A stretch of 64,000 nucleotides of DNA from Dehalococcoidia bacterium (GTDB lineage: Bacteria; Chloroflexota; Dehalococcoidia; UBA2979). The stretch is taken from assembly GCA_965261685.1 (NCBI GenBank), contig CBDHDI010000026.1, positions 423,777 through 487,776 of the forward strand. Reading direction: 5' to 3'. Position 1 is the first letter of the stretch. Each line of letters opens with the position of its first letter. The notes under the pieces are model-generated. The model worked only from the letters and a program-made list of their open reading frames with translations, had not been told where the DNA came from and searched no databases. Below are positions 15,243-57,345 of this stretch, one piece after another. Position numbers and translations under genes: made by a program.

Positions 15243-15261
15243 GTCAGCGACGTTGTGGGTG

Positions 15262-16725: not shown

Positions 16726-16745
16726 GCTGCTTCCTCCGCCTGCCG

Positions 16746-18446: not shown

Positions 18447-18554
18447 GGTCAGTCGACGCCGAAGAACCGGCGCTGCTCCGCGAGGAAGAAGCTTCGGTAG
18501 CCCTCCGGCACATCGACGACGCGGCCCGAGGCGTCCACCTCGATGGGATTGAAA

Positions 18555-18603: not shown

Positions 18604-18769
18604 AATAACCACAAGGGTTTTTCGCCGTCCTCGTTCGGTCACCCGGCTCGAGTGGCACCAGCTTGGGGCCAAACTGGGGCCAATCTCCCGATCAAGTAGT
18701 CGAGCAGCTCGCCGCAGGATCCTGCGGTGCACAAGGGCCGCGGCTCCGCTCGGGGCATCGCCGCCGACC

Positions 18770-33702: not shown

Positions 33703-33903
33703 CTTATCAGCTGTACTGACCACAGAGCCCCGCCCTTCGCACGGCCCCACTGCTGCCCAGGCTCTTTCGCACCGGTCCACGAACATGGGTATGACGACCC
33801 GCTCGGGCGAAGAGGGATGCGCTAGGCTCTACGTGGCGCTCGCGTTCTGAGCAGGCGAACTGGGCCTGCCTAGCCACGCTAGGTCAATCCCGGGCCTCAC
33901 TCC

Positions 33904-36549: not shown

Positions 36550-37091
36550 GATGCGAGTCAAACCGGCGCGGCAAGCCGGTAGCGGTTCACCCACACAGAC
36601 TCAGCAACCATGGCGCGCCTCTCGGCCAATCAGCAGGGCGGCTCTGATGCGCGCGCAACGGCTCGATCTCCGACTACACGAGTGACGGGGTGCGGGCGAG
36701 AGAGAGACTCACAACAACTCACCATTGCGACTCAATAGCTGACAGATAACTCATACATAAGTACTCTCTTTGTGCTCTCATGGGTTACGTGATGAACATG
36801 GACGCCGTAACTCGCGCGATTGCGCGGACAGCAACTGGAATTGTTGCCGCTTCGAGTGCGCGCACGCGGATGACCAGCGCGGCCACGGTTGCGGTGGCGG
36901 CGCGTCCCAACCGACCTGCCACCGGAGCGCCGACGATCAGCGGGACGGCGCAGGTCGGCGAGACGTTGACGGCGGACGTCTCCGCGATCGCCGACGCGGC
37001 CTGAGCAATGCGGTCTACGAGTACTAGCAGGGTGATGAAAAACCCCTGAGGGCGCAGGAATGGAGCGTTCGGAGCACTGCGGAGTTTCGAG

Positions 37092-37113
37092 AACCCCTTG
37101 TATACAAAGGGTT
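37092..37113. promoter_or_regulatory. Imperfect 22-bp palindrome AACCCCTTGTATACAAAGGGTT (core TTGTATACAA) ~310 bp upstream of giant gene
   Basis: Read directly. It lies downstream of a short AT-richer patch (~36700-36790) in an otherwise 70% GC sequence. Confidence 0.3.
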
Positions 37114-37424
37114 CCTCATGCGCCGCAATCAGCCGATTCAGGGCGGAGACCGCCCCGGGAAGACTTTTTCAGCAGCCTGCTAGTGGCTGGTCGGCGGTCT
37201 GGTTACCGAGATCACGGGCGCGAACGGTTCGGCCTCCCCCGCGGTCAAACGCAGCATTCCGATCAGATCGCGATGGCGAACGGATCGGCTGACCGAGCCG
37301 GCCGGCGGAAGGTCCGGTCGCGCGAGCAGGAAGGACTCATGACGCAGGCAACCGGAGACCGGGGCGGCGCCCCTGATGGTCACCCTCCCTCCACGGCGCT
37401 CATGCTCGACGTGTTGTCAGGCCA

Positions 37425-40400
37425 ATGCTCCGCATCGCCCGGATAGTCGCTGTGCGCTCGATGATTGGCGCGCTGGGCGCGCTGGTCGCGCTGCTGGCCA
37501 GCCTCGATTCTGCGCATGCCGACCCGGCCTGCGCGCTTCCGCCCATTGGCCTCGACAGCGCCCTGGACGAGGGTGGTGCGGGCATCATCCTGACCTGGCA
37601 AGCGTCGCCCTGCGACCCGGACGGGTACGCCATCTATCGCCGCGACATGAACGACGCCGGGGCCAGGATGCTGCGCCACGCCACCGTGCCGGGCGACGCG
37701 CTCTCTTATCTCGACGCCGATGTCTCGGCTGGCGTCACCTACCGATACCGGGTCAGGTCCAACGACAGCGGTCGCCGCTCAGACTTCACCGATATCACGA
37801 CGCCATCGGCGTCCCGCGCATCGCAAGCCTCGACCGACGCCGAGCTGAGCGCGCTCAGCCTCAGCCCCGGGACGCTGGATCCCGCCTTCGACCGGATGAC
37901 GGACTCCTACACGGCGTCGGTCGAGCATCTGCAATCTCCGATCACACTGATCGCCACGGCGTCCGATCCGGTCAACGCCAGGGTCGAGTTCCTGGACGGC
38001 GACGACATGCCGCTGGCGGACGCCGACGGCAACACGGCAGGCCACCAGGTGGACCTCGCCGTGGGCGAGAACACGAGCAAGATCAAGGTGACCGCTGAGG
38101 ATGACTTGACCACTCGGACGTACACGCTGGTCGTGACCCGCGCCGGGCCGAACACCGACCTCAGCGATCTGCGGGTGAACGGCGTCAGCGTGCCCGGATT
38201 CGACTCGGACGTTAAGTACAAGTCGTCCGGCGTGCAGCGCGGCGTGGCCGCATCGGTGGCGCAAGCGACGATCGAGGGCGTCACCGACGATCCCGACGCC
38301 GCGGTTGCCTACCTGGGCACGGACGCCGACGAGATGACCGACGGCCACCAGGTGAACCTCAGCGAGGGCCGGAACGAGATATCGATCGTCGTCACCGCGG
38401 CCGACGGCGTCACGACGAGGACCTACCTGCTGAGCGTCAACCGGGGCTCGGACGCGCCCTTCGGTTGGAGGGCGCAGGACGACTTCGACACCCTGGTGGC
38501 GGCCGGGAACAACTCACCCGTGGGCCTCTGGTCGGACGGCACGACCATGTGGGTGGCGGAAGACCACGATCCGCTCGAACGGCTCTTCGCGTACGCGCGC
38601 GACACCAGGTTGCGCGATCCCGACAAGGACTTCGAAACCCTGCGGGCGGCTTCGAACACGAACGTCCGGGGCATCTGGTCGGACGGCATGACCATGTGGG
38701 TGGCGGACAGCTATGACGAAAAGCTCTACGGCTACGCGATGGATACGCGGCAGCGGGCCTCGGGCAAGGACTTCAACTCGCTGGAGGCGGCCGACAACAC
38801 CGATCCCGGGGACATTTGGTCTGACGGCGAGACCATCTGGGTGGTGGAGAAGAGTGACCCAAAGCTCTATGCCTATCGGCTCGCCACCGGTGAGCGGGAC
38901 TCGGCCAAGGACTTCAACACCCTGGCCGGCGACCATTCCGCTCGCAATGCTATCTGGTCCGACCGCACGACCATCTGGATCGGAGACAGCGCGAGAGAAG
39001 AACTCTACGCCTACGACCTGGCTACCGGGAAGCGCGATCGCGGCAGCGACTTCAACACCCTGAAAGCAGTCCGCAACACACACATCCGCTACATCTGGTC
39101 CGACGGTACGATCATGTGGGTATCAGACCGGAGAGATGGCAAGCTCTACGCCTACAACATGCCCGGCAACGCGGACCTGAGCGGGCTCAGTCTCAGCGCC
39201 GGGACATTGGAGCCGGCGTTCCACCGGGTGACGACGTCATATGCGGCGTCGGCGCCGAACGCCGTGTCCACGATCACGGTGACCGCGCCGGCGTCCGATG
39301 CCGGCCAGGCCACGGTTGAGTTCCTCGACGCCTCGGACGAGACGCTGGCGGACGCCGATCTCAACACTGCGGGACACCAAGTCGCCCTCGCCCCGGGTGA
39401 GAACACGATCAAGATCAAGGTCACCGCCGAAGACGGCGCCACGACCCGGACCTACACCCTCGTGGTCACCCGACAGGGGCCGCTGGAGGTGAGCTTCGGA
39501 TCGTCCTCGTTCCGCGTCGCAGAGGGTGGCTCTGTCACGGTGACGGCCGTTCTGGAGCGGGCGACCGAGCGTGACGTGGCGGTCCCGCTGATCGTCACAG
39601 CCGGGAGCGGCGTCAGCGACGATGACTACTCAGGCGTGCCGGAGAACCTGATAATCGCTCGCGGTTCGTTTTTCGCGACCTTCAGTTTCAAGGCCGAGGG
39701 CGACGTCGTCGTCGAGGACGACGAGGTCGTCACCGTGTCGTTCGACACGTTGCCCGATGGCCTGACCGCGGGTACTCCGACAACGACCACGGTCACAATC
39801 GAAGACGACGACGAACCGAACTGGTTGGTCTCGGTGGTTCCGGCGTCGATCGCCGAGGCGAACGAGTCAGCGGCAACGGTGTCGGTGAGCAGCGGCGGCG
39901 TGACGTTCACCGCTGACAGGACGATCAGCCTCAATTTCGTGGGCACGGCGACCGAAGCGGTGGACTACGAGGTCGCGGCCAAGACGTTGACCCTCGCGGT
40001 CGGAGAGCACACGGTCGCGACCACGGTCAGCGCGCTGGACGACAGCGTCTCGGACCTCGACGAGCAGATCCTGGTCAGGGCGACGCTGGACGGCGCCAGG
40101 ATCGGCGCTCAGCAGACGATCACCATCGCCGACGACGACGAGGCGTCCGACGGGATCGTGCTCGAAGTTGCGCCCAACCGGGTCAACGAGGACGCGGGCG
40201 TTACGACCCTGACGGTGACCGGCACGCTCAACGGTTCGGCGCTGACGACCGACACGCTGGTGTCGCTCATGCTCGCTGCCGGCACCGCGACCGTGACCAC
40301 CGACTACACGGTCAGCTCGAACACGGCCACGCTCACGATCCCGGCGGCGGCGACATCGGGGACGGCCAGCTTCCGGCTGACCCCGGTCGACGACGCGATC

Positions 40401-43400
40401 GACGACGACGACGAGACCGTGACGATCGCGGCGTCGACGATGTCGGCCCTGACGCTGTCGACGTCGTCGCTGACCGTCACGATCGCCGACGACGACGAAC
40501 CGAATACCGCGCCCGTCTTCCAGCCTCCGTCCCCGACGCGCAGCGTGGACGAGAACAGCGCAGCAGGCGTCGCCGTGGGCGCGCCGGTGACCGCGATCGA
40601 CGCCGACAACGACCGGCTGAGCTACTCGCTGGGCGGCGCCGGCGCGACCGCGTTCCGGATCGATGAGGCCAGCGGACAGCTGCGCACGGTCTCGGGGGTT
40701 GACTACGACCATGAGGCGGCCGACCGCTACGCCGTGACGGTCACCGCCGACGACCTGCGCGGGGGCGTCGGCAGGGCGTCGGTGACGATTCACGTCAGCG
40801 ACCTGGACGAGCCGCCGCCCGCCCCCGCCGAGCCAACCGTGACGCCCACGGTCGGCGAAACGGACGGCCTGGAGGTGTTCTGGATTGCCCCCAGCGCGAG
40901 CGGCCGCCCCACGCTGAGCGGCTACGAGCTGCGCTATCGAGCGGGCGGCGGCTCGTGGGTCGGCTGGAACCACGCGGGCACGGGCATCGTCGCCACGCTC
41001 GACGGGCTCAAGGCTGGTACCCGTTACGAAGTCCAGGTGCGCGCCGGCAACCATGAGGGCTGGAGCAGCTGGTCGCAATTGGGCGCGGGCTCGACCAACA
41101 CTGCGGACGACATCTGTTCGGCTGACGGCCCGACCCCGACCAGGATCACGGTCAGTTCGGTGCCGATTGTGATCGCCTCGACGACGGACGACTACTTCGT
41201 CCTCTACGTCACCCACGAGTTGGACGGCGCCGAAATCTGGACGCCGGTCTCGGTCACCCGGGGCAACGCCGGCAGCACCACGCTCGCCGAGCAGGTCAGC
41301 CCGCTGCCCGCCTCGCGCTACCGGGTCGAGCGCTACTCCGTCTCCGACCCGGCCGACATCGACGGCGACTGTATCGACGACCTCGCCGAACTCGACGCCC
41401 TGGGCCGCTTGAACCCGCTCAACCCCGCACCCCAGATCGCGATCACGGACGGCGCGACGGCGATCCCCGACCGCTCGACCTTTGAGACGCTCGCCTTCTC
41501 CGAGCAGACCGCCGGGCATGAGTATGTCAAGTTCGCGCTGCTCGACATGGACACCGACGAGCCGCTGCTCTACTGGATCAACTCCAAGACCCACCGGCGC
41601 CACCCGATCGCCTTCTTCCTCGAGACGATCGGCCACGCGGGGCCGCACCTGCCTTGGTCGATCCCCGGCGAGGTCGTCTACAACCCCAACCTAACGGCGA
41701 CCGACGGCACGCGCGGCGTCTACTACTTCTGGCTGCTGCACTACGACGCCCGCTTCACGCCCGCCTTCCTGGAGCGCGTCTACGCGCTGCTCAGCTCGGC
41801 CATGCCGCTGCTCGACGACGACCTGCCGATGTACATCCCCAACCAGCGGCTCGGCAGCTATCGGGCCGATCTGGATACGCTCAGGGACTCGCGGATCCCA
41901 CTGCTCTTCAACGAGGACGTCTTCGGCAACGCCGACTTCCTCGCCCTCAACCACGGCGTCGGCTACGGCCGCCTGCGGGTGATGGCGCCGGGCGAGCGTC
42001 CCAACCCGCGCAACGTCGTGATCTACGAGACGCTGCCCAACGAGTTGCCGCGCGTCGCCGGGATCATCACCGGCGTGCCCCAGACTCCGCTCTCGCACGT
42101 CAATCTGCGCGCCGTCCAGGACGGCGTCCCCAACGCCTACATCAAGGAGCCGCTGGAGGACGACGAGATCGACGACCTGGTTGATCGCTTCGTCCGCTAC
42201 GAGGTGACAGCCGAGGGCTACGAACTGCGCGCCGCCGCCAAGGCCGAGGTCGACGCTCACTTCGCCCGCTCCCGACCCGCCCATGTGCAGACCCCGGAAC
42301 GCGACCTCACGGTCACGGCGATCAGCGCGCTCAGCGAGATCGGCTTCGACGACTGGCGCGCGCTCGGGGTCAAGGCCGCCAACGTCGCCGAACTGGGCAA
42401 GCTCGGCTTCCCCGAGGGCGCCGTGCCCGACGGCTTCGCCATCCCTTTCTACTTCTACGACGAGTTCATGCAGCACACCGCCCTGGGCGAGGAGACCGTC
42501 TTCGGCAAGGGCAAGGGCGCCGACGAGGACAAATTCACGCTGCCGGCCGAGACCAAGCTGATCGATGCCGTCCAGGCGATACTGGCCCACCCCAAGTTCC
42601 AGACGGACTTCGAGATCCAGGACGAGATGCTGGATGACCTCCGCGACGCGATCGAGGACGCCCAGAGCCCGCAGTGGATCATCGACGCCCTGACCGCCAT
42701 GCACGCGACGTATCCGCAGGGGCAATCGCTGCGCTACCGGTCGAGCACGAACAACGAGGATCTGCCGGGCTTCAGCGGCGCCGGGCTGTACGACTCCAAC
42801 ACCCAGAAGCCCGACGAGACCGTCGAGGACGGGATCGACAAGTCGCTCAAGCAGGTCTTCGCCAGCCTGTGGAACTTCCGGGCGTTCACCGAGCGGGAGT
42901 TCCATCGCATCGACCACCTGGCCACCGCGATGGGCATCCTCGTCCATCCCAACTACTCCGACGAGCGGGCCAACGGCGTGGCCGTGAGCTTCGACCCGAT
43001 TCGCGGCTACAGCAACTACTACTACCTCAACACCCAGCTCGGCGAGGACCTGGTCACCAACCCCGAGGCCGACTCCGAACCAGAGGAAATCCTGCTGCAC
43101 CGCAGCGGCGACTTCTACGAAGTCCTGGCGACCTCCAACCAGATCGAACCGGGCGCGCTGTTGATGACCGACCTGCAGATGAAGCAGCTGGCCGAGCACC
43201 TGACCGTGATCCACGACCACTTCGCCCGGCTCTATCCGGCCCGACCCTACGCAATCGAGATCGAGTTCAAGATCACCGAGGCAGACATCCTCGCGATCAA
43301 GCAGGCCCGGCCCTGGGTCTACGGCGCTGCGACCTCCTCCTCGCCGCTCACTGGCCCTGCGACCGTCGGCTACGAGGAGAATCGGGCCTCCCGTGTGGCC

Positions 43401-46265
43401 GCCTACTCGGCGTCCTCCGAGGCGGACCTGGAGTTGGTGGGTTGGAGCCTGTCGGGCCCCGACGCCGGCTCCTTCCGCATCGACGAGCCCGGCGGCGTAT
43501 TGCGCTTCGACCTCCCCATCGTGGCCCCCAATCTCTTCTCTCCTCAGCCGGACTACGAAGCCCCGACCGACACGGGGAGCGACGGCGCCTACGAGGTGAC
43601 CGTCGAGGTAAGCGACGGCGTCACCACCCACTCGCTGGACGTGGCGGTGACGATCACCGATCAGGACGAAGCGGGGACGCTGACCCTGTCCCCGACCCGG
43701 CCCCGGCAGGGCGAACCCGTGACGGCGACGCTGGCCGACCCTGACGGCGTGACCGGGACGATCACCTACGAGTGGGAGCGCTCGGCGGGCCGCAACGCGT
43801 GGGTCACCATCGCCGGCGCGACCTCTGCCAGCTACTCGCCGGTCGCCGCTGACGCCGCGCACTACCTCCGAGTGACGGCGTCCTATACCGACGGTCACGG
43901 CTCCGGCCAGACCGCCCGGACGGTGACACCCAACGTGGTGCTGGCGCGAACACTGAGCCGGCTTGAGGTAGTCACGACCTCCTCGAGACAGCTGTATCCC
44001 GCGTTCGACCCCGGGACGCTCCACTATGCCGTGGGTTGCGTCGCAGCGGACACGCTGCGCCTGACGCTATCGACGACGGACGCCGATACCCGGCTGGCGG
44101 TCGACGGCGTCCAGTACGCCAATCAGAACGCAATCGTCGAGTTGACGGGCAAAGGCGGCGAGAGCGACATCCTGATCACGCTCAGCGGTGGTAGCGACGG
44201 CGCAAGCACCACCTATACGCTGCACTGCCTCGCCGAGGATTTTCCGACGATCACCGTGACAAGACTGGACGGCGCGTCGGAGTCGTTGATGACCATCTCA
44301 TATGGGCAGTACCTCGCGATCATCGATCACAACGGGGTACCTCGGTTCCGGGGGCAGGGGCGAGGACATTTCAGGGCGTACCCGGACGGCGGGTATCCAT
44401 ATGCGGTATACGTCCACGCGGACTCTGCATATACCGTGTACGACGAAACTTTCAACGTAGTCCAGAGTGGGATCACAACGGTCAATCTCCACGACACGAA
44501 CTCGCACGACTTTTTCATCAAACCGAACGGTGATTACGTGCTGATAGCGTATGAGCCTGCGGTGCGCGATCTGAGCTTCATATCTGAACAATTTGGTCTG
44601 ACGAACGAGGACGGCGAACCATACGGTACCGCCGAGGACGTGAAAGATTCAGTGATCCAGGTGGTAACGCCTGCCGGGCAAGAAGTGTTCCTGTGGAGCT
44701 CCTGGGATCACATGGCGATCGAAGACTGCACGCAACATCGCTTCCCCGGTGATTACGCGCACATCAACTCAGTACAGGCCGCGGATGGGGACATCATCGC
44801 TTCATTCCGGGGCTGCTCGAAGGTGTTGAGGATCGATGGGACCAGCGGTGATGTGATCTGGCGGCTGGGCAGGAGCAATCTGAGTACAGAGGAGTGGGAG
44901 AGCCGCAGCATCGGTCCGCCGCCGCTGAAGATCGTTGGCGACCCCTATGGGGAGTTCTGTGGGCAGCATGCGGCGCGGTTGCTGGACAATGGCCACCTCA
45001 TCCTCTTCGACAACGGCGTGCAGTGCCTTGAAGATCCACGAACAGGCGGGACGGAACGAGTCGGCGGTCAGTTCAGCAGAGTCGTTGAGTACGCCATCGA
45101 TCTGAAAAACGGCGAAGCGATCTTCCAGCGTCACGCCTTCTTGCACGGCAACATGAACCACCTGTCCTACGCGATGGGTCAAGCCGATGCGCTGGACAAC
45201 GGCAACTGGTTGATCACCTGGGGCCGGGGCGCCAGAGTCCGCGATCCTCAGGATCCCGATCCTCCTGACGTGTCGGCAACGCAGGTGAATCCGGCGACCG
45301 GAGTCGAAGAACTCACGGTCGTCGCCAGGATCGACGGCGATGTCCAGACAGAAGGCCGGATGTACCCTGTGGCCCCGGTGGCGCTGGCCACCGAACCCAT
45401 CGCCCTGACGGCCGAGTTCCCCGCGAGCACGTACACATCAATCTTCCATCTCGGCGTCACGGACTCGCCGCAGGTCGTCGTGGCCTTCAGCCGCCCGATC
45501 GTCGACTTCGACGACACCACCCCATCGCTCACCGTCCGCGGCGCGGAAGTCGCGAGCGTCAGCCCGCACGTCGTCGCCGGCGAGCCGGCTTACGCCTACC
45601 TGTTCACGCTGACGCCGGACGGCGACGGCGCGATCACGCTCACGCTGCTTGCCAACCGGAGTTGCTCCTCGGGAGGCATCTGTACCGCGGACGGCGCAAT
45701 GCTGTCGGAAGTCCCCGGCACGTACACGATCGAAGCGCCGGTGCGCGTCTCCTTCGAGCAGACGAGCTTCACGGCATCGGAAGGCGCGTCAGCCTCGATC
45801 GTGGTGAGCCTGAGCGCGCCGAGCGGGCCCTTCGGGCTCACCATCCCGATCGTGGTCACAGGCGGCACGGCGTCCGCGGACGAGTACAGCGCCCCGGAAC
45901 AGGTGGTCTTCAGCAGCGGTAGCGACCGGCAGGCCGTTTCCATTCCGCTTGGCGACGACGCGCTGATCGAAGGCGACGAGACCATTGCGCTCGCTTTCGG
46001 CGACTTGCCCCCAGGCGTCACGCCGGGAACCAACGCCACGACGACCGTGACGATCACGGATGCAGACAGCGCGGCGTTCGAGTTCGCGATCTCTGACGAC
46101 GAGGTGGGGGAAGGCGCCACGGTGGAGCTGACCGTCACCCTCGATGGCGACGCCACCTTCGCGACCGCGCAGACGATTAACCTCACCTTCCCGGGCGGCG
46201 CAGCCACCGCGGGAGTCGATTTCACCGTCGCAGATTCCCGGGGACAAACGCTGACGGCCCCTTAT
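37425..46265 (+). CDS. Giant secreted modular surface protein, segment A (2,947 codons): signal peptide, FN3, cadherin-like beta-sandwich, propeller repeats, Calx-beta, cadherin, FN3, PPDK_N-like ATP-grasp, Ig-like, ASST-like propeller, Calx-beta; interrupted by IS1380 copy 4
   Basis: Signal peptide MLRIARIVAVRSMIGALGALVALLASLDSAHA. Domains were assigned by motif recognition (see findings). Confidence 0.8.
38520..39170 (+). repeat. ~13-14 tandem ~47-aa 'GxWSDGxTMWVxD...KLYAYxxxTGxRxxxxDFxTL' repeats (predicted beta-propeller blades), coding
   Basis: GLWSDGTTMWVAEDHDPLERLFAYARDTRLRDPDKDFETL / GIWSDGMTMWVADSYDEKLYGYAMDTRQRASGKDFNSL, and so on. A second array lies at 53480..54170. Confidence 0.7.
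41480..43320 (+). other. Embedded PPDK_N / PEP-synthase-like ATP-grasp (PEP/pyruvate-binding) domain within the giant protein
   Basis: LGVKAANVAELGKLGFPEGAVPDGFAIPFYFYDEFM (cf. GGKxAxLxE...VPxGF), RYRSSTNNEDLPGFSGAGLYDS (cf. RSSATAEDLPxASFAGQ), LKQVFASLWNFRAF, and MGILVHPNYSDERANGVAVSFDP (cf. MAVxVQxMVxxxxSGVxFTxDP). Confidence 0.6.
44230..45300 (+). other. Arylsulfotransferase (ASST)-like beta-propeller domain preceded by cadherin-like beta-sandwich
   Basis: LHDTNSHDFFIKPNGDYVLIAYE...HINSVQAADGDIIASFRGCSKVLRIDGTSGDVIWRLG...HAARLLDNGHLILFDNG. Recalled similarity to the ASST family (PF05935). Confidence 0.45.
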
Positions 46266-47923
46266 CTCGAATCCACCGATCGAAGCTTGAAGGGGCGGGC
46301 TGCCGGGCTGCCGGAGCGTTCGGCGGGCGTGCCGGCGTTCGCCGGGCGGTGCCGGAGCGAGGAGCCGTCGCTCAGCGTCGCTCAGCGCGGCTCGGGGGCG
46401 CTGAGGGCGCCGGCGCGAGGGTGCGCGAGGCGTGCGCGGGCATGCTGGCGCGAGCCTCGGACCCGTGTTGGCGCTGTGAGCGAGCGTCAGGCCGGGAGCG
46501 GTAACGCCCGTAACCGCGCCAGGGCGGCTGCCCACTGGCCAGCCCAGGGCCAGCGCTTCGCGAGGTGCAGGGTCCAGCGCCGTGCAGAATGGGTGAGCCG
46601 TCCGGCGAGAGCGAAGTAGCGCCGCCTGAGCGTCCTGGTCGTCACGATCCCCTCGCCGAGCCCGAGCCGCGCCGTCCAGCGGGCGAGGTTGTGCGCGATC
46701 ACCTGCACCGCGAGCCACGCCCCGTTCGCGCCGAAGCGGCCCGAGGGGAGATGGTTCAGCCCGACGCCGTACTTGAGGTCACGGATCGTGTTCTCGATCT
46801 CGGCGTGACGGCGATGGTCGGCCTCCAGCTCCAGCAGCTCCCCGGCGCGATCGGTGATGAAGGCGTGGTAACTATAGTTCGCAAAGAGCGCGAGCTGTGA
46901 GCCGGGCGTCGGCTTGACGCGCCGCACGATGAGCCGCACCGCGGTGGCATCCTCCTTGTGCTGGAACGGCGTGTAGGTCGTCTCGGCGACATCCGCGCCG
47001 CCCGGCAGCCAGTACGGGATCGGCGTCCAGTCCTCTTCCGGGATCGCCTCGATCAGCGTGCGTACGTTCGGCTGCTGGCGAATGGTGATGGAGAAGCGGA
47101 CATCCTGCTTGCGGCAGACGGCGACGACGGCGTGGTTGTAGAAGCCGCTGTCGGCGCGCACCGTGAGCTGCCCGCTCGCCCCGGCGTCGCGCACCCGCGC
47201 CACCGTCTCACGCAGGAAGTGGGCGGCGCCGCGGGCGGTGTTGGCGCGGCCCTCGCGCAGCCGCGCCATCAGCACGTCACCCGTCCCGGCCGCAACGGCG
47301 AGCAGCGGGTGATAGCCGCGCACGCCCGTGTAGCCGTGGTGCCGGGCGCCCTCCTTCGCCAGGCCGTAGGTCTCGCAGATCGTCGAATCGAGGTCGATCG
47401 TGAACGGCGCCGCGCCCGGGCCCGCTCCGGCCGCCCAGCTGCGGGCGAGCAACTCGCGGCTGAGGCGGTCGAGCTGGCGGACGTGGCCCCAGCTGAAGCT
47501 GCGCAGGAAGACACCGAGCGTGGACGGCGCCTTGACGGTGCAACCGAGCACGCTCGCCGTCCCGCCGGCGCGCAACGCAGCGGCGTCGTCGATGCACTCG
47601 CCGCCCGCGAGCGCCGAGGCGACCAGGGTCAGCAGCTTGTCGCCGGCGTTCGCCCGGCCCGGCGCGTCACCGAGGTCGAGGTAGCTGTCGGCGAGCTCTT
47701 GCAAACCGAGATGCTGGGCGAGCGTGGCCGGGAGGAGCAGCCCCGCATCGGCCACCAGGCGGTCGTCGTCGAAGGCGATGTCTATCCGGTCGGGGTCGCT
47801 CGTTGGTAGCATCGAATGGGTGCTCCCTGTGGCTGTGACGTGATTCGGTCAAAAACCATTGTCCCAGCTACAGCGGAGCACCCAACCGCAACCGCTCATG
47901 CGCTCTTCTTCGGTGGATCCCGG
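46266..47923 (-). mobile_element. IS1380-family IS, copy 4 (1658 bp), TSD CTTAT, inserted in giant gene
   Basis: gccccTTAT|ctcgaatcc ... ggatcccgg|CTTATgcg. Transposase 46487..47812 (-). Confidence 0.85.
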
Positions 47924-47928
47924 CTTAT

Positions 47929-50900
47929 GCGCTCACCCTGCCCGCGGGCTCCAGCTCGGTGGCGGCCACGATCAGCATCGTTGACGACGCCGAGGAAGAA
48001 GGCAACGAGACCATCGTGGTCAGGGCCCGGCATGGAGCCGATGCCGTTGGTGACCTCCAGGTCATCAAGATCCTGGCCAACGACGAACCCATCATCGGCA
48101 ACACCCTGCCAGTGTTCAGGGATGGTCAGTTTGCGGCACGATCCATTGCCGAGAACACCGGGCCGAACATGGACATCGGCACCCGGCTCGAGGCAAGGGA
48201 TGTCGATCCGGGGGACACGCTGACGTACTCGCTGGGCGGCACGGACGGTGGCTTCTTCACCGTCGTCCGGACCAGCGGTCAACTCCAGACCCGGTCCGGC
48301 ATCACCTACGACCACGAGGCGCGGTCGAGCTACCGCGTGACCGTGAGCGTCTCGGACGGCGCGGCCACTGCATCGATCGACGTGACGATCGCGGTGACCG
48401 ATGTGGACGAACCGCCCGATGCGCCTGTCGTGCGGGTGGGCAGCGCGTCGCCCGTCAGCCTCAATGTGATGTGGCTGGCGCCCGCCACCCCCGACCGCCC
48501 CGCAGTCAGCAACTACGACGTGCGCTACAAGCTGGACAGCGAAACGACGTTCATCGACGGCCCTCAGGATGTGAGCGGGACGAGCACGACGATTGCTGGT
48601 CTGCTACCAGCCTCCAGCTACGACGTGCAGGTGCGAGCGACGAACGCTGAGGGCGACGGAGCCTGGTCGGCGTCGCAACCGGGCGAGACGGCCGTGCTGC
48701 CGGCGGTCACGCTGATCCTGAGTGCATCTTCGATACCCGAGGACCGCGGGATGAGCACGGTGACCGCGACCGTGTCACCGGCCTCGCCTGCACCCTTCTC
48801 CGTGGAGATCTGGGCAGCGGCCGTCCCGCCGATCCCGGGCCAATTCGAGACCAGCCTGAATAACATCCTCAGCTTCGCGGCGAACGCGACGCAGAGCACC
48901 GGCCAAGTGGTGATCACGGGCCTCGTCGCGACGGTGGTGAACGTAACCGGCACCGTGTCGCCGGCCGGCGTCCTGGTGAAACCGCCGGCCCGCGTCCAGC
49001 TGCGAATCACAGATGTGGACCCCGCAGTGACAGTGCGCTTCGGGAGTGCCACCTACAACGTGCCCGAGGGGGGCATCCGACGCATCAGCGTGCTCCTGGA
49101 CGAGGACCCGGAGCGCACAGTGGTCATCCCCATCACGAAGACCAACCAGGGCGGAGCGCGCAGCGGCGACTACTCCGTCGACCCTGACCCTACCAACGTG
49201 ACGTTCAACGCCGGCGGAGACCTGACGCAGACCTTCACCTTCACCGCCACCGCTGACACGGACGACGACGATGGCGAGAGCGTGTTGCTGAGCTTCGGCA
49301 CTCCCTTGCCCACGCGTGTGTCCACCCTCGCGCCCATCCAGAGCACGGTCAGCATCATCGACGACGACGATCCGGAGGTAACCGTTAAGTTCGGCGCATC
49401 CTCGATCAACGTGGGTGAGGGCGACAGCGCCACCATCACCGTGACCATCAGCGCCGACCCGGAGCGCACCGTGGTCATCCCGATCACGAAGACCGGGGAG
49501 CACGGCGCCACCGCGCAAGGCGAAACGGGCGCCGACTACTCGGGCGTCCCGAACAGCGTGATCTTCACCGCCAGCGGGTCGCAGACCTTCACCCTCACGG
49601 CGACGCAGGACCGCATTGACGACGACAACGAGGTGGTCAAGCTGGGCTTTGACACCGACAAGCTGCCGCCGGGCGTTACTGCCGAGAGTCCCACCACGCA
49701 GACGATCAACATCGGCGACGACGACAAGCGCGGCGTGACGGTCACGCCGGACGAGCTGGGCGTCAACGAGGACATGTCAGGCACCTACACGGTGGTGCTG
49801 GACACGCAGCCCACGGCGAACGTGACGGTGACGCCCAGGACGACGAGCAGCGAAGTGACGCTCTCCGGCGACCTCATGTTCACGCCGACCGACTGGGACA
49901 CTGCCCAGATGGTCACCGTCACGGCGGGGAACGACGCCGACACGGTGGCTGAGACGCTGACTGTCACGCACACGACGCGCGGCGGCGACTACGACATGCT
50001 GGCGACCGCCAGTGTCGCGGTGACGTTGGTGGACGACGACATTGCCGGCGTCGCGATCAACCCTTCGAATCTGGAGATTGACGAGGGATCGGAAAAAACG
50101 TTCACCGTCAAGCTGATCACCGAGCCCGGTAACGTCGTGACTGTCACGATGAGCTCCCGCGACGCGGCCGTGGCGACCGTCAGCGACGACTCGCTGACCT
50201 TCACGACCGGCGACTGGAGCACGGAGCAGGAGGTGACCGTCGCGGCTGCGCAGGACGACGGCGCGGCGAACAACGACACGATGATCACCTTTGGCGTGAG
50301 CGGCTACGGAAGCGTTACGGAGGCTGCACCCGTCACGGTCACCGTGGAGGACGACGACGAGCGCGCCGTGACGATCAGCGTGAGCGCGCTCACGGTGGAG
50401 GAGGAAGCGGCCACCGCCGACCCGCCGACCAACACCTACACGGTGGTGCTGGACACGCAGCCGGAGCAAGGGGAAGGCAACGTGACCGTCGCCATCACCT
50501 CCGACAACGACGACATCAGGACTAACGGCGGCAGCGCCACGTCGGCGAGCCCGTACAACCTGACCTTCACGTCCACCAACTGGGACCAACCGCAGACGGT
50601 GGCGGTCACGGCGATCAACGACCTCGACGGCTGGAACGAGGAAGCGACGCTCACCCACGCCGTGAGCGGCGCGGACTACGGCGCCGTGAACGCCGGTGCC
50701 GTCGGTGTCACGGTGACGGACAACGACCTGCTCGGCCTGCGCGTCAGCCCCGCCGAGTACACCACCGAACGCGTGGACGTGACTGAGGGCACGACGTATA
50801 GCTACACGTTGGCGCTCCTGACGGTCCCGCTGGGCGACGTCACCGTCGACATCACCTCCAACAACCCGGACGTGACCGTGGACCCGACGAAGTTGACGAT

Positions 50901-51645
50901 CCTCGCCGCCCAGTGGAACGCCCCGCACACGGTCAAGATCACCGTGGCGGCCGACGCCGACGGTGAGGACGAGCCGGCGACGCTGTCGCACACCCTGAGC
51001 GGCTACGGAACGTACACCACCGGCCCCGATTTCCTGGTGCAAGTGCTGGACCGGAACGAGCCCGGCGTGTTCATCGAGCCGACGACGCTGGCGATCACCG
51101 ACGGCTTTACCGACGCGTACTCAGTCTGGCTGCGCACGGAGCCCAGCGGCACCGCAACGGTTCGGGTAGCGGGCCACGCGGGCACGGATGTGACGGTGAT
51201 GCCGGAGAGCCTCACCTTCAGTTCCTCGGACTGGAACGTGCCGCAGGCCGTCACGGTCACGGCTGCGGAGGATGAGGACGCGGACAACGACACGGTGACG
51301 CTGACGCACACCGTGAGCGGCTACGGCACGGTCACCACCACCGATGCTGTCACGGTGACCATCGTGGACCGCGACGAAGAGGGAATCACGGTCACGGACG
51401 TGACGCCCCCGCTGGAGGACCCCAACGAGGGCGATACCCCAGCCACGGGCACGTACACGATCGTGCTGGACACGCAGCCCAGCGGCGAGGTGATGGTCGC
51501 CATCACCTCCAACAACCCGGACGTGACGGTGATGCCGGAGAGCTCCATCTTCACGACCTCGGACTGGAACCAGTCCCAGACGGTCACCGTCACGGCCGCG
51601 GGTGACGCGGACGCAACGGACGACACGGCGACCCTGACCCATAAG
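47929..51645 (+). CDS. Giant surface protein, segment B (1,239 codons): Calx-beta continuation, cadherin, FN3, Calx-beta x3, six ~105-aa tandem repeats; interrupted by IS1380 copy 5
   Basis: Frame-compatible with segment A once the 1658-bp IS plus 5-bp TSD are removed; the join reads ...TLTAPY|ALTLPAGSSSVAATISIVDDAEEEGNETIVV (Calx-beta-like). Confidence 0.8.
49727..51640 (+). repeat. Six tandem ~105-110-aa coding repeats (GVTVTPxxLxVxEGxSxTYTVVLDTQPxxxVTVxxxS...DTxTLTHTVSG...VTVTxDDD)
   Basis: Periodicity visible in the translated sequence; repeats start near 49741, 50050, 50370, 50735, 51066 and 51381. Confidence 0.6.
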
Positions 51646-53303
51646 CCGGGATCCACCGAAGAAGAGCGCATGAGCGGTTGCGGTTGGGTGCTCCGCTGTA
51701 GCTGGGACAATGGTTTTTGACCGAATCACGTCACAGCCACAGGGAGCACCCATTCGATGCTACCAACGAGCGACCCCGACCGGATAGACATCGCCTTCGA
51801 CGACGACCGCCTGGTGGCCGATGCGGGGCTGCTCCTCCCGGCCACGCTCGCCCAGCATCTCGGTTTGCAAGAGCTCGCCGACAGCTACCTCGACCTCGGT
51901 GACGCGCCGGGCCGGGCGAACGCCGGCGACAAGCTGCTGACCCTGGTCGCCTCGGCGCTCGCGGGCGGCGAGTGCATCGACGACGCCGCTGCGTTGCGCG
52001 CCGGCGGGACGGCGAGCGTGCTCGGTTGCACCGTCAAGGCGCCGTCCACGCTCGGTGTCTTCCTGCGCAGCTTCAGCTGGGGCCACGTCCGCCAGCTCGA
52101 CCGCCTCAGCCGCGAGTTGCTCGCCCGCAGCTGGGCGGCCGGAGCGGGCCCGGGCGCGGCGCCGTTCACGATCGACCTCGATTCGACGATCTGCGAGACC
52201 TACGGCCTGGCGAAGGAGGGCGCCCGGCACCACGGCTACACGGGCGTGCGCGGCTATCACCCGCTGCTCGCCGTTGCGGCCGGGACGGGTGACGTGCTGA
52301 TGGCGCGGCTGCGCGAGGGCCGCGCCAACACCGCCCGCGGCGCCGCCCACTTCCTGCGTGAGACGGTGGCGCGGGTGCGCGACGCCGGGGCGAGCGGGCA
52401 GCTCACGGTGCGCGCCGACAGCGGCTTCTACAACCACGCCGTCGTCGCCGTCTGCCGCAAGCAGGATGTCCGCTTCTCCATCACCATTCGCCAGCAGCCG
52501 AACGTACGCACGCTGATCGAGGCGATCCCGGAAGAGGACTGGACGCCGATCCCGTACTGGCTGCCGGGCGGCGCGGATGTCGCCGAGACGACCTACACGC
52601 CGTTCCAGCACAAGGAGGATGCCACCGCGGTGCGGCTCATCGTGCGGCGCGTCAAGCCGACGCCCGGCTCACAGCTCGCGCTCTTTGCGAACTATAGTTA
52701 CCACGCCTTCATCACCGATCGCGCCGGGGAGCTGCTGGAGCTGGAGGCCGACCATCGCCGTCACGCCGAGATCGAGAACACGATCCGTGACCTCAAGTAC
52801 GGCGTCGGGCTGAACCATCTCCCCTCGGGCCGCTTCGGCGCGAACGGGGCGTGGCTCGCGGTGCAGGTGATCGCGCACAACCTCGCCCGCTGGACGGCGC
52901 GGCTCGGGCTCGGCGAGGGGATCGTGACGACCAGGACGCTCAGGCGGCGCTACTTCGCTCTCGCCGGACGGCTCACCCATTCTGCACGGCGCTGGACCCT
53001 GCACCTCGCGAAGCGCTGGCCCTGGGCTGGCCAGTGGGCAGCCGCCCTGGCGCGGTTACGGGCGTTACCGCTCCCGGCCTGACGCTCGCTCACAGCGCCA
53101 ACACGGGTCCGAGGCTCGCGCCAGCATGCCCGCGCACGCCTCGCGCACCCTCGCGCCGGCGCCCTCAGCGCCCCCGAGCCGCGCTGAGCGACGCTGAGCG
53201 ACGGCTCCTCGCTCCGGCACCGCCCGGCGAACGCCGGCACGCCCGCCGAACGCTCCGGCAGCCCGGCAGCCCGCCCCTTCAAGCTTCGATCGGTGGATTC
53301 GAG
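51646..53303 (+). mobile_element. IS1380-family IS, copy 5 (1658 bp), TSD ATAAG, inserted in giant gene
   Basis: ccATAAG|ccgggatccacc ... gattcgag|ATAAGgcc. Transposase 51757..53082 (+). Confidence 0.85.
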
Positions 53304-53308
53304 ATAAG

Positions 53309-55027
53309 GCCAGCGGCAGCGATTACAGCGCCACCGCCGCCCTCATGGTCACCGTCACCGACCTGGACGACCCGCCGACCACCAGCACTAGCACCGGCGG
53401 CGGTGGCGGTGGTCCCTCCGGCCCCGCGCCGAGCAAGGTCGAGTTCGAGTGGAACGTGACCCGCGACATCGAGCAGCTCGACAGCGGCCACGACTCCCCA
53501 ACGGGCGCCTGGTCGGACGGCACGCTGCTCTGGATCGCCGAGAACGGCGACGGGGCTGACGACGCCGTCTACGCCTACGACCTCGCCACGGGCGAGCGCC
53601 TCGAGGAGCGTGAGTTCGAACTCCACGAAACCAACCGCGCGCCGCGCGGCCTGTGGTCCAACGGCAAGACCGCCTGGGTCGCCGATAGCGGCCAGAACCG
53701 CCTCTTCGCCTACGACCTCGAGAGCGGCGAACGCGACGAAGAGCGCGAGGTCGAGCTCGACACGCGCAACCGCGACCCGCGCGGCATCTGGTCCGACAAG
53801 GAGACGATGTGGGTGCTCGACGGCGGCAAGAACGCGCTCTTCGCCTACGACCTCGCCACCGGCGAGCTGCTGGTCGAGTACACCCTGCACTCCACCAACG
53901 ACGACCCGCGGGGTCTCTGGTCCGACGGCGTCACCATCTGGGTCTCCGACCACGGCGCCAAGCGCATCTTCGCCTACCGGGTCGTGGCGCAGGACGCCGA
54001 GACCGCGACCGAGGACGAAGACGACGCGGCCGAGGAAGAGGCGCTCCTGCTCGATCGTGCCCGCGACGAGGAGTTCACCGAACTGAGCCGGGCCAGCAAC
54101 AACAGCCCGCGCGGCATCTGGTCCGACGGCGAGGTGATGTACGTCGCCGACGAGAGCGACGGCAGGGTCTACAGCTACAACCTGCCTGACGCCATCGACG
54201 CACGCCTCGCCTCGCTCACCCTCAGCGGCGTCGACATCGGGGAGTTCGATCCTGGCGCCATCGACTACCAGGGCGTCATCGCCGAGGGCGTGACCGAGAC
54301 GACGGTCGAGGCCGCAGCGATGCAGCGCCGCACGAACGTCGAGATCCACCCGCTCGACGCCAACGAGGCTGCCGACGGCCACCAGGTGGCGCTGGAAGGC
54401 CTGGACGCGATCACCGTCACCGTCACCTCGGCCGACGGCAGCCGCACCCGCGTCTACCGCGTTCGCCTCGGCGAGGAGGCGGCGAGCTGCCTGCGCGGCG
54501 ACATCGCCGAAGGCTTCAGCTTTGTGGTCCATGAGGGCGGCCCGGTCGAGGAACTGGTGGCCTGCGCGGAGAGCCGGGATGTGGTCGCGCTCTACGCGCT
54601 GCACGAGGGCGTCTACATCCCGTACATCCTTGGTGCGCCGGACTTCGTCAATGCGCGGTTCACGGAGCTGTACGCCGACGGCGTGCCCGCTCTCACACTG
54701 CTGATCGCCGGGAGCAACGGGCCTCCCAGTGAGGATCCGCTGGGCGATACCGGCATGCCACAGCCCTGGCCCGAGTGTCTGCGGGGTGAGATCGCGGAGG
54801 GGTTCAGCCCGGTGCTCTACGAGGGCGGCAGCGTCGACGACCTGGCGGCGTGCGCGCAGGGCCGAGGAGTCACAGCCGTGTATACCCTCGCGAGCGGGGA
54901 GTGGATCTCGTACATCCTCGGCGCACCTGAGTTCGCGAACCAGGCCTTCCGGGAATTGTTCGCCGAGGGGCTGGCCGCCGTCACGCCGCTGGTCGTCAGG
55001 AGCGAGGGACCTGCCGCAGGTAACTGA
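53309..55027 (+). CDS. Giant surface protein, segment C (572 codons): linker, second propeller-repeat array, cadherin-like beta-sandwich, 2.5 copies of novel Cys-containing C-terminal module
   Basis: The join reads ...ATLTHK|ASGSDYSATAALMVTVTDLDDPP. The C-terminal modules are CLRGDIAEGFSFVVHEGGPVEELVACAESRDVVALYALHEGVYIPYILGAPDFVNARFTELYADGVPALTLL, repeated. Confidence 0.8.
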   Translation, partial: ASGSDYSATAALMVTVTDLDDPPTTSTSTGGGGGGPSGPAPSKVEFEWNVTRDIEQLDSGHDSPTGAWSDGTLLWIAENGDGADDAVYAYDLATGERLEEREFELHETNRAPRGLWSNGKTAWVADSGQNRLFAYDLESGERDEEREVELDTRNRDPRGIWSDKETMWVLDGGKNALFAYDLATGELLVEYTLHSTNDDPRGLWSDGVTIWVSDHGAKRIFAYRVVAQDAETATEDEDDAAEEEALLLDRARDEEFTELSRASNNSPRGIWSDGEVMYVADESDGRVYSYNLPDAIDARLASLTLSGVDIGEFDPGAIDYQGVIAEGVTETTVEAAAMQRRTNVEIHPLDANEAADGHQVALEGLDAITVTVTSADGSRTRVYRVRLGEEAASCLRGDIAEGFSFVVHEGGPVEELVACAESRDVVALYALHEGVYIPYILGAPDFVNARFTELYADGVPALTLLIAGSNGPPSEDPLGDTGMPQPWPECLRGEIAEGFSPVLYEGGSVDDLAACAQGRGVTAVYTLASGEWISYILGAPEFANQAFRELFAEGLAAVTPLVVRSEGPAAGN

Positions 55028-55434
55028 TCTCCCTGTGCGCAACCTGCGTCTGCTGAACGAGACGGGCTACGGCGCCTGGACAGCCGCGCAAGCGGCGGCA
55101 AGTCGCGGCCACACGGGAAGAGGCCGGGCTGGAATGACGGGAATCGCCTATCGGCTCAGGGCGAGCAGGCTCACGGTCCACGAATAGCGCAGCTTTTCGT
55201 GTGGATTGGAAAACCGAGAACTCCGTCTCGAACCAGACGATCGTCGGTATGAAGCTGCGGTCGTGCCAAAAGGGTGCGCCAGGTTGTATCTGGCGCTCTT
55301 GTTCTGAGCGCAGCGGCAGCCTCGCTCCCGCGGTGCCGGGCCACGACTCGGGAGCCCAGCCGGCGCCGCATCCACGGCATGGGCACATGCTCGCAGAACC
55401 GATTCGGCTAGCAAAGCAGGTCGGCCGTCAATCG

Positions 55435-56779
55435 CTAGTCGATGAAGTCGAGTCTCCCTGACCGCGCTGAGCAGTCCCAGGTACCGCTAGGGTCCTTGTG
55501 ACGCCGTAGTTGCGTCCCTGGTCTCTTACGCCGGAAGCGCCTGCCACACATCGGGCAGACCACGACGTACCGAGCTTCACTTGAGCTTGTGCGACTTCGC
55601 CGGGGAGACCTCGACCGCCCGGTGCTGCGGCGAGCCGACGGGAGTGCTGGGATCGCTCCCGCCTCTGGGAATTCGATAGCGTAGCTCGGAGTGAACGGCT
55701 GGGTTGTGACCCGGGCCGACTCGATGCGGTCAAGCCTGTACGCTCGGTGCTCACGGCTCTCCGCCCGAAGGGCGTGGAGAAGGACGTTCCCTGCCCGTGA
55801 CTGCCTCAGGGAGTACGGCTCAATCAGCCGATTCCCACCCTGGTACCCAAGATCAACGAGCAAGCGGTTCACAGCCGCAAACCGGACGGGTTCGATGCGG
55901 TTCCCCAACCCCGTCGTCCAGAAGGTCGGTGGCGGTGTCCAGAGATCGTCCTCCGCCGCCAGCGGTACGGGCTCAGGGGACTCTTCACCGTTGAGCCAGG
56001 CGAAGAGCCGCGGCAACTCGGACCAGAAGTGGTCGAAGTCCGGGAGGGCTCTCAACTGGTGGTCGAGCATATTCGCCCACTCGGTTTCGAGTTCGTCGAA
56101 CATCGGGGAGGTCCGGATGCTCTCGACTGAAGGGATGGCGATCCCTTTCGACGAGCACTTCTCGGCCAGGATCTCGCGGACGAGTGCGGCGTAGGGCAAG
56201 AAGTCCGGCCGACGGAAGAGGTTGACGATGTCGTAGAGGTCCCGAGGTCTCGACCGCTCGCCCATCGCGCGCAGCTTCTCGGCGAAGACCTCTTCGAAGC
56301 CGTAGCAGCGAACTTGCACCGGCTCGGGTAGTGCATCGGGATAGTCGTGGCTGATCGACCTCAGGACCGACGGCCGCACCACGACTTCGTCTGTGGTCAG
56401 GTCGAGCTTGATGCTCGCGGGACCGGGCGCGTTGCGCGGCCCGCGATAGTAGAGTCGCCCTTCTGCCGATGCTCCGGACGGACGGCTCCTGCAGATGGGT
56501 GGTCGCACCGCGAAGTCGATGCCGGACTCCTGACTGACACGGTCGAGTACACGCTCGACCGCCGCGAGCACCTCTTCCGGCTCGATCGGCCCGTCTTCAA
56601 GAACCGTGAAGTCGAGGTCCTCGGAGAACCGGTACGTCTCGATGTAGCACTTCTTCAGGCACGTGCCGCTTGAAAACCCACGTCCGGCCGAGCAATGAGT
56701 CGGCCCCAATACCCCAGAGCACCCACCCGAGCACGTAGTCCTTCTCGACTACGTCCTCGCGGAGACCCCACGTGCGCAC
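55435..56779 (-). pseudogene. abiEii: AbiEii/AbiGii-family nucleotidyltransferase toxin with -1 frameshift (~56620-56630) and C-terminal WYL-like domain + zinc-ribbon extension
   Basis: Frame A gives VEKDYVLGWVLWGIGADSLLGRTWVFK. Frame B then gives GTCLKKCYIETYRFSEDLDFT, the canonical NTase motif. A one-base loss in a G run accounts for the shift (gtt ttc aag [g]gc ggc acg...). C-terminus: NVLLHALRAESREHRAYRLDRIESARVTTQPF (WYL-like) and VVVCPMCGRRF...C. Confidence 0.65.
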
Positions 56780-56805
56780 CCGGTCGTAGATATCGGCTCG
56801 CCCGA

Positions 56806-57345
56806 TTACAAGTGAGCCTCGTTAGCGGGAGCAAGCCGTGCGCTGTTCACCCGGAGATTCCAACGCGAGACGATCCGGCCTTCCCTCGGGCCAGCAGGAT
56901 CGAGCCAGCTCAGCCCGCGAGTGATCCGGCTGCGACATGCGCCGATAAAGCTGGCGTCCGCAAGCTGCTGTCGCTCCGCCAGGTACCCGAGGCGCTTGAA
57001 TACGGTCCCGCGGCCCAGGCGGTCGCCGTACTGCAGGAGACGCGCTGGATCGGCATCGGCACTCTCGAAGTATGTACCGAGGACTTCGGATGCATGCAGC
57101 GCACCTCCCGCCGCGCCCGGCACGTCGAGAACATCGATGACGGTGCGGTGCGGGTCGGACACATCGACCGGCACCTGTCGGCGCCAGACACGCCGCGTGC
57201 CGAACAGTGCCTCCATGGGCACGCTCCGGATGGTGAAGTCTGTACCCTGAACCGACTGTCGGCTCGGCGTGACCTTCTTACCGGAGACGACGTAGATGAC
57301 ACTGAAGATCTGGTCGGTCAGTCCCCAGTGCTCTGCGGCGCTCCA
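56806..57345 (-). pseudogene. abiEi: abiEi antitoxin, C-terminal part (gene split by IS256 copy 2)
   Basis: ...AEHWGLTDQIFSVIYVVSGKKVTPSRQSVQGTDFTIRSVPMEALFGTRRVWRRQVPVDVSDPHRTVIDVLD. Confidence 0.65.

Follow-up and report, generated by a model that had tools for sequence, protein, structure and literature searches.

A giant gene for an apparently secreted modular protein, recently split by two copies of an IS1380-family element, on an insertion-rich island of a Chloroflexota-like bacterium

In a 64-kb stretch of DNA from a Dehalococcoidia bacterium (contig CBDHDI010000026.1; the whole stretch is hereafter called the window), three long plus-strand open reading frames (ORFs) between positions 37425 and 55027 are separated by two copies of an insertion sequence (IS) of the IS1380 family. 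We are highly confident that these ORFs are the remains of one giant gene of 4,758 codons, which would encode a secreted mosaic of adhesin-type and enzyme-like modules and was recently split by two IS1380 transpositions. Exact removal of both insertions restores a single uninterrupted frame, and a near-identical allele on a separate contig has both sites empty.

The ORF list places the three long ORFs at 37425-46619, 47959-51720 and 53345-55027, with two 441-aa ORFs on opposite strands between them, and a repeat search recovered a perfect inverted repeat of 1,670 nt that pairs 46260-47929 with 51640-53309. After in-silico excision of 46266-47928 and 51646-53308, the remaining pieces (37425-46265, 47929-51645 and 53309-55027) add up to 14,277 nt, a multiple of three, and translate into 4,758 residues and a terminal stop with no internal stop codon. 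This bears out the first-pass annotation of the window, which had proposed a single ~14.3-kb pre-insertion ORF now divided over frames 0, 1 and 2, and whose coordinates all proved correct; the pieces occupy these frames because each insertion adds 1,658 + 5 = 1,663 bp (1 mod 3). No secondary lesion was found within the 14.3 kb. A 4,758-codon open frame regained by two exact excisions is not explicable by accident, and chance is excluded. Of the pieces, all on the plus strand, segment A (37425-46265) holds codons 1-2947, its present ORF extending to 46619 through 117 IS-encoded codons; segment B (47929-51645) holds codons 2948-4186, with its first in-frame start, a GTG, at 47959 and without a signal peptide of its own; and segment C (53309-55027) holds codons 4187-4758 and the stop, the ATG of the present ORF lying at 53345.

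Domain continuity at both joins, also claimed at first pass, is recovered by the excision. At join 1 (residue 2947), where the reconstructed protein reads ...DFTVADSRGQTLTAPY|ALTLPAGSSS..., a Calx-beta match to residues 2885-2979 runs across the join, a match that is weak and sub-threshold when taken alone (E 4.9e-4; 20.5 bits vs a cut-off of 27). Join 2 (residue 4186), which reads ...ATLTHK|ASGSDYSATA..., interrupts the last of six copies of a ~110-aa repeat; with the IS removed, this sixth copy is full-length, aligns end to end with the other five and regains the motif TLTH-x-SG.

The two inserts are 1,658-bp elements that are 100 % identical. The transposase ORF of copy 1 (46266-47923, minus strand) occupies 46487-47812 of the minus strand and runs antisense to the giant gene, and that of copy 2 (51646-53303, plus strand) occupies 51757-53082 of the plus strand; the copies are exact reverse complements, and hence inverted rather than direct repeats, an orientation that the first-pass annotation left unstated. 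A third 100 % identical copy, at 32045-33702 (minus strand), interrupts a serine-recombinase ORF at its 3' end. The 441-aa product scores above the family cut-offs as an IS1380-family transposase, both with PF13701 (192.8 bits; cut-off 34.7) and with the IS1380-family equivalog NF033539 (329.2 bits vs 180, model positions 2-419 of 419), and the identification of two identical IS1380 copies thus stands. IS1380-family members, as described in ISfinder, are single-ORF elements of ~1.5-2 kb with terminal inverted repeats (TIRs). On insertion, they generate a short (4-5 bp) target-site duplication (TSD). Like ISEcp1 and IS1380 itself, the element here has one DDE transposase ORF within its 1,658 bp, imperfect TIRs (CCGGGATCCACCGA / CTCGAATCCACCGA, 11/14 positions matching) and a 5-bp TSD. 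Since its nearest annotated plasmid-borne relative, an IS1380-family transposase from a Pseudonocardia plasmid, shares only 57 % amino-acid identity, we regard it as an unnamed member of the family.

Homology searches used residues 1230-2650 and the C-terminal cassette as separate sub-queries. The first of these recovered a 98 % identical protein (P0001) encoded on a 34.4-kb contig of 4x coverage (ENA ERZ25069191, ctg566873_4x_c; hereafter L001), 20.8 kb of which were compared with the window. Over the gene and the flanks on either side, L001 and the window are colinear, with an overall identity of 98-99.7 %; by segment, window 33703-35183 corresponds to L001 7769-9249 (99.2 %), 36548-37027 to 9240-9723 (98.1 %), 37180-46265 to 9720-18795 (97.9 %), 47924-49924 to 18791-20796 (99.4 %), 50243-51645 to 1-1403 (99.6 %) and 53304-57345 to 1399-5441 (97.3 %). 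The sole gap in this colinearity, window 49925-50242 (318 nt of segment B), lies beyond the compared 20.8 kb. When 80-nt probes over the reconstructed joins were matched to L001, junction 2 agreed in 80/80 nt and junction 1 in 79/80, and the pentamer occurs once at either site; the one difference at junction 1 is a homopolymer deletion, typical for a low-coverage long-read contig. The upstream copy of the gene on L001 is called as a single 3,655-aa product whose end is the gene's 3' end, and in this stretch L001 reads through join 2. An un-inserted allele, which the first-pass annotation had suggested looking for, thus exists, L001 having both empty sites. Among more distant Tepidiformaceae/Dehalococcoidia genomes, the loci L003-L007 are uninterrupted over residue 2947 in tblastn comparisons, and L004 is also uninterrupted over residue 4186. 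The identical IS copies, the perfect TSDs, the absence of any other lesion and the near-identical empty-site allele together agree with the claim that the insertions are very recent.

The insertion sites share an oriented pentamer. Copy 1 is flanked by CTTAT (46261-46265 on the left, 47924-47928 on the right) and copy 2 by ATAAG (51641-51645 and 53304-53308), each pentamer being single at the corresponding empty site of L001, and copy 3 is flanked by ATAAG in the IS orientation; 5-bp direct repeats accordingly border all three full copies. Written in the orientation of the transposase, ATAAG stands on both sides of all three identical copies, as the CTTAT of copy 1 is its reverse complement and represents the same oriented target relative to the IS. 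Diverged copies in the window are flanked by GTTAG and [A/C]TTAG, and a 90 % identical copy on an orthologous locus from another genome (L002, 17870-19516) sits in CTTAG. The element would appear to prefer an oriented NTWAG target, with the presently active variant using ATAAG; its activity is suggested by the three identical copies and by their presence or absence relative to L001. The 64-kb window (69 % GC) holds 12 ATAAG/CTTAT pentamers, six of which are TSDs, and the reconstructed gene holds three, at nt 281, 8837 and 12554, two of them occupied. Copies 1 and 2 lie in opposite orientation because their target pentamers do. That ATAAG might instead be part of the IS, with no duplication involved, is ruled out: one pentamer is kept at each empty site, and only removal of 1,663 bp regains the reading frame. 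We met no description of such a strict, oriented pentamer target, no literature search having been aimed at that trait. Identical flanks on all IS1380 copies would also conceal any recombination among them.

These observations are best explained by two independent, recent transpositions of one active IS1380-family element, which hit two of the three ATAAG/CTTAT pentamers of the gene, each time duplicating 5 bp and taking its orientation from the asymmetric target, and thereby distributed the gene over frames 0, 1 and 2. The two events belong to a local IS burst, in which the ~21-kb unit, relative to the sister allele, gained two IS1380 elements, two IS256-family elements and one miniature inverted-repeat transposable element (MITE), with the third identical IS1380 copy at the edge of this unit. 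The gene itself would now be either a truncated allele or a pseudogene of recent origin. The export signal and the two enzyme-like modules remain in piece A, which ends in the 117 IS-encoded residues and lacks the C-terminal 1,811 residues, a widely shared C-terminal cassette among them. Pieces B and C are probably dead, because they have neither an export signal nor a recognisable promoter, a promoter scan having found no sigma-70-like sites around the IS ends. A terminator-like hairpin at 55276-55296, downstream of the gene, is not above chance.

The alternative that survives best, which we nevertheless consider improbable, is that the insertions are not merely destructive: piece A might still work as a shorter variant that is un-anchored, or the 3.7-kb segment B and the inverted IS copies around it might form a composite transposon able to carry a domain cassette from one paralogue to another. 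It fits with the retention of the signal peptide and both enzyme-like modules by piece A, with natural family members of ~800 to ~2,400 aa, with cassette boundaries that vary among orthologues, with the inverted identical IS copies that bound segment B, and with the relatives of the giant gene, which also sit among IS1380 and IS256 copies. Against it, no promoter-like sites were found around the IS ends, and the cassette breakpoints in relatives (~1969, ~2022, ~2764 and ~4226) differ from the IS sites at 2947 and 4186. Composite movement has, in any case, not occurred here, since each IS has its own TSD and segment B stands in its native place and orientation. If true, the composite-transposon option would offer an IS-driven route to the cassette mosaicism of the family.

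A composite transposon would be expected to show one TSD around the entire IS-segment-IS unit, and the unit to stand at a new location. Two composite-transposon candidates were examined on the same grounds and rejected. For the IS256-family pair around the gene, each IS has its own TSD and the intervening DNA is colinear with L001; for the IS1380 pair around segment B, each IS likewise has its own TSD, and the order and orientation are native, as in L001. Neither IS pair thus moved as a composite transposon, given the separate TSDs and the native order of the intervening DNA.

We give very little credence to the possibility that a single gene never existed, the pieces being either three separate genes or a chimera of paralogues fused where their IS copies recombined. 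Mosaicism is pronounced in this family, as seen in the jump of L002 after residue 1969, the lack of the arylsulfotransferase in L004 and the separate cassette ORF in L003, and with identical flanks on the IS copies such recombination would leave no trace in the TSDs. Excision, however, regains both frame and domains exactly, L001 is colinear through both joins at 98-99.7 % identity, and its single 3,655-aa product ends at the gene's 3' end, where L001 reads through join 2. It is this colinearity with L001, rather than the TSDs, that excludes a rearrangement. Equally remote is an assembly artefact in which IS copies were mis-joined into an intact gene via collapsed repeats: assemblers are notoriously prone to error where, as here, three 100 % identical 1.66-kb repeats fall within 22 kb, yet a mis-join would not twice duplicate exactly the 5-bp pentamer that is single at the empty site, with correct IS termini abutting, nor would it account for the same oriented ATAAG at an unrelated third site or for related pentamers around diverged copies, one of them in another genome.

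Several points nonetheless weigh against a recently split, single giant gene with lost function. The three identical 1.66-kb repeats are known from the assembly alone, and because all three copies share one pentamer, their perfect TSDs are weaker evidence than they would otherwise be. L001, assembled at 4x coverage, contains indels (29 gaps over 10.8 kb) and fragmented gene calls (3,655 aa; 2,328 aa plus pieces). It also has ~1.6 head-to-tail copies of the ~21-kb unit, a puzzling arrangement that could reflect circularity of the element, duplication in tandem or an artefact of assembly at low coverage. Scans of JGI metagenomes for the exact junction-1 sequence, filled or empty, gave no match, and a gene-position collection had no exact counterpart of the ORF A product or of the transposase. 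Both the choice of start codon (M1 or M13) and the signal peptide were judged by eye. Finally, loss of function is something that we infer, and a truncated piece A could still work, because many family members are only 800-2,400 aa long.

Homology between the window and L001 stops, on the left-hand side, exactly at the inner edge of IS1380 copy 3 (33703) and, on the right-hand side, at ~59626, just before an IS5-family transposase (59668-60642). As the homology ends at IS borders, the shared unit is IS-bounded in the window genome. On L001, the ~21-kb unit comprises the giant gene, AbiEii, AbiEi, Fic and TrwB-like genes; one of these, Fic (L001 6668-7567), is missing from the window.

A Pfam scan of the reconstructed protein returned five Cadherin-like, five Calx-beta, two fn3 and two cadherin matches, together with PPDK_N and an arylsulfotransferase. 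To the eye, the N-terminus (MLRIARIVAVRSMIGALGALVALLASLDSAHA|DP) resembles a Sec signal peptide, and the gene call on L001 starts at the equivalent of M13. Segment A continues from this signal-peptide-like N-terminus with fn3, three Cadherin-like domains with a WSDG propeller-like block, Calx-beta, cadherin and fn3, followed by a dikinase-like core (~1230-1970), a further cadherin, the arylsulfotransferase (2360-2606) and Calx-beta. Segment B comprises the Calx-beta-like remainder, cadherin, fn3, Calx-like domains and ~110-aa repeats, and segment C the end of the sixth repeat, a Gly/Pro linker, a second WSDG propeller-like block, a Cadherin-like domain and two ~90-aa C-terminal domains. Both WSDG repeat blocks (~340-580 and ~4230-4470) give faint beta-propeller matches, no Pfam family matched the six ~110-aa repeats (3548-4208), and the last ~190 residues are a tandem pair of one uncharacterised domain. 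The arylsulfotransferase module matches PF05935 and PF14269 (66.2 bits vs 24.2 and 42.2 vs 27) as well as the sulfotransferase 9kf4 in the PDB (E 5.8e-11). Unlike bacterial arylsulfotransferases (ASST) that act independently of 3'-phosphoadenosine-5'-phosphosulfate (PAPS), which are stand-alone periplasmic enzymes, it is here one module in a 4,758-aa protein.

Individual parts of this architecture recur widely. At least 1,729 protein clusters contain the ~740-residue core (~1230-1970) with 50-70 % identity, some homologues being only ~800 aa long and consisting of the core alone, and the C-terminal ~530-residue cassette is found in at least 1,268 clusters behind varied N-terminal domains; combinations of PPDK_N with an arylsulfotransferase recur in other lineages (P0010-P0013). 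The cassette-bearing proteins are uncharacterised products of sponge-symbiont-like metagenome genomes, the core homologues being found in apparently sponge-associated Chloroflexota and Acidimicrobiia. The domain mix, which the first-pass annotation had called unusual, is therefore so only relative to characterised proteins, as each cassette is very common in the metagenome-assembled genomes of this community. The orthologues themselves are cassette mosaics: L002 matches residues 1-1969 and then directly the C-terminal cassette, L004 matches residues 1-2022 and then a region like 2764-4207 without the arylsulfotransferase, and in L003 the C-terminal cassette occupies a separate, overlapping ORF. 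The L004 orthologue (4116-16200 of OZ253575.1, a Tepidiformaceae metagenome genome; 91-94 % identical) is itself broken into ORFs of 721, 2,817 and 424 aa by a frameshift at ~6260-6281 and a break at ~14719-14926, with no IS involved, and these breaks may be either real decay or assembly error.

The ratio of nonsynonymous to synonymous substitution rates (dN/dS) against L001 and L002 is ~0.45 (~0.44 against L001 over the 5' 10.8 kb). So high a value would fit a fast-evolving surface protein, but the counts are too small, and L001 too rich in errors, which inflate both terms, for a firm reading. Over the 3' 3.1 kb (window 50243-55027 vs L001 1-3122), 10 nt differences fall in 9 codons, all non-synonymous, which is too few to interpret.

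The eukaryotic-like proteins of sponge symbionts have been defined by Pfam cadherin, fn3 or Calx-beta domains at E < 1e-5 (PMC11706023), and the reconstructed protein has PF12733 at 4.1e-38, PF03160 at 9e-26, PF00041 at 2.5e-24 and PF00028 at 6.2e-20. By its domain content, it would belong to this cadherin/fn3/Calx-beta class, with which it shares PF00028, PF12733, PF00041 and PF03160; the window also has a GPP34-P450 gene of the kind highlighted in that study. The giant protein differs from typical members of the class in its two additional enzyme-like modules and far greater length, and the study concerned Actinobacteriota, whereas the host here is Chloroflexota-like. Literature searches on Poriferisodalis, on sponge with PF01326 and on sponge with Tepidiformaceae returned nothing on this giant-protein family.

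The dikinase-like core would comprise an N-terminal domain, a domain like a phospho-histidine carrier and an ATP-grasp domain. Its ATP-grasp portion matches PF01326 (PPDK_N) at residues 1647-1964 (75.3 bits vs 27) and phosphoenolpyruvate (PEP) synthase (E 1.3e-8), and an RSS..EDLP..AG motif is invariant in a 21-sequence alignment. A phospho-histidine domain (PF00391) went undetected by sequence in both the Pfam and the PDB profile searches, and the support for a domain of this type comes solely from a fold comparison that leaves the matched part unspecified. We provisionally assign it to the invariant QTPLSHxNLRA segment (His1558) by secondary structure and sequence pattern. The AlphaFold model of the core from the 21-sequence alignment is mediocre (mean predicted local distance difference test score, pLDDT, 63.5; 70-90 over residues 100-390). 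Pfam and NCBIfam scans found no PEP-utilizers_C domain, and the best NCBIfam score of the core is 65 bits vs an equivalog cut-off of 598. In PEP synthase, PPDK and rifampin phosphotransferase (RPH), the order is ATP-grasp, substrate/His domain and C-terminal domain, whereas here the His-like domain precedes the ATP-grasp. The PEP/pyruvate TIM-barrel domain of PEP-utilising dikinases is absent, and unlike those enzymes the module lies inside a signal-peptide-bearing protein with adhesion domains. The permuted order and low score (65 bits vs 598) place the core outside the PEP synthase/PPDK/RPH orthologous groups. It may act as a permuted dikinase, passing phosphate from the ATP-grasp to a phospho-His and on to an acceptor. 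We suggest only tentatively, as a doubtful proposal, that it represents an undescribed class of exported, permuted dikinase-type phosphotransferase whose targets would be the host matrix or small molecules of host or microbial origin. Secondarily, the cassettes of such genes may be shuffled in part by target-specific IS1380 elements.

Disruption of genes by ISs is well known, and so are the giant multidomain eukaryotic-like proteins of sponge symbionts. The event itself is an ordinary one, in which an active IS spread within a mobile island and interrupted a long gene at AT-rich targets, of which that gene has few, and it does not overturn current understanding. It does provide a clean, datable case of IS expansion eroding or remodelling a very large surface/secreted protein gene in a symbiont-like genome, and it records, for a member of the IS1380 family, a pentamer target that is oriented and unusually strict, so that long GC-rich genes would be vulnerable only at a few AT-rich sites. 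The reconstruction also supplies a full-length reference for a mosaic family whose split member annotation pipelines would report as three unrelated fragments, and it draws notice to a very abundant, uncharacterised and apparently exported dikinase-like module. The modest interest of the case lies in the strict ATAAG target and in this module, the latter being the only part worth follow-up.

With regard to the host, the best RecA match reaches 94 % identity. Named RecA matches are Dehalococcoidia/Chloroflexota at 76-77 %, and the giant gene has its closest genomic relatives in metagenome genomes of Tepidiformaceae, which points to a Dehalococcoidia/Tepidiformaceae-like Chloroflexota bacterium. 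The host is probably sponge-associated, as suggested by the names of related genomes (Candidatus Poriferisodalis, Poriferihabitaceae) and by the GPP34 marker; the Tepidiformaceae/Dehalococcoidia relatives have accessions in the same naming scheme as the Poriferisodalis/Poriferihabitaceae genomes. GPP34 (Golgi phosphoprotein 3) proteins have been reported as a marker of sponge-symbiotic Actinobacteriota (PMC11706023). The window encodes a GPP34-cytochrome P450 fusion as a 674-aa ORF (878-2902, plus strand), here in an apparently Chloroflexota genome.

An integrated mobile island, rich in ISs and adjacent to a tRNA gene, carries the giant gene as cargo. Housekeeping genes (recA, RNase Y, proC, MMPL and the GPP34-P450 fusion) occupy 1-18 kb of the window, followed by the tRNA gene at 18533-18604 and by the island at ~19-61 kb, which carries a tyrosine integrase, a helicase, a serine recombinase, a TrwB-like fragment, an AbiEii toxin and nine IS copies, with aroK/aroB after it at 62.3 kb. 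No convincing repeat of the tRNA 3' end, as would mark an attachment site at the island boundary, was found when looked for. On L002, the orthologue adjoins TraC/TraG-like conjugation genes. The ISs of the island belong to four families (IS110, IS5, IS256 and IS1380). Besides the three identical IS1380 copies, one at 24682-26453 is rearranged, having lost 106 nt and gained 220 nt internally, and one at 26651-29811, ~94 % identical, is split by an IS110-family element (~27696-29218; transposase ORF 28020-29207, minus strand).

Three further insertions flank the giant gene. A MITE-like insertion of 152 nt (37028-37179) lies upstream, stopping 245 nt short of the start codon, and has 15-nt TIRs (CAGGGTGATGAAAAA / CAGGCTGCTGAAAAA) and a duplicated CTAG target; L001 and L002 both lack it, and it is the only copy in the window. 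An IS256-family element with a 407-aa Mutator-type transposase (35184-36549, minus strand) has its own 8-bp TSD (GATGCGAG), and an identical, inverted copy (57346-58711, plus strand) has another (GCGCTCCA), neither being present in L001. Downstream of the giant gene lies an AbiEii toxin gene with a WYL-like region (55435-56709, minus strand), and the second IS256 copy interrupts the adjoining ORF, which is a 278-aa gene in L001 and presumably encodes the partner antitoxin.

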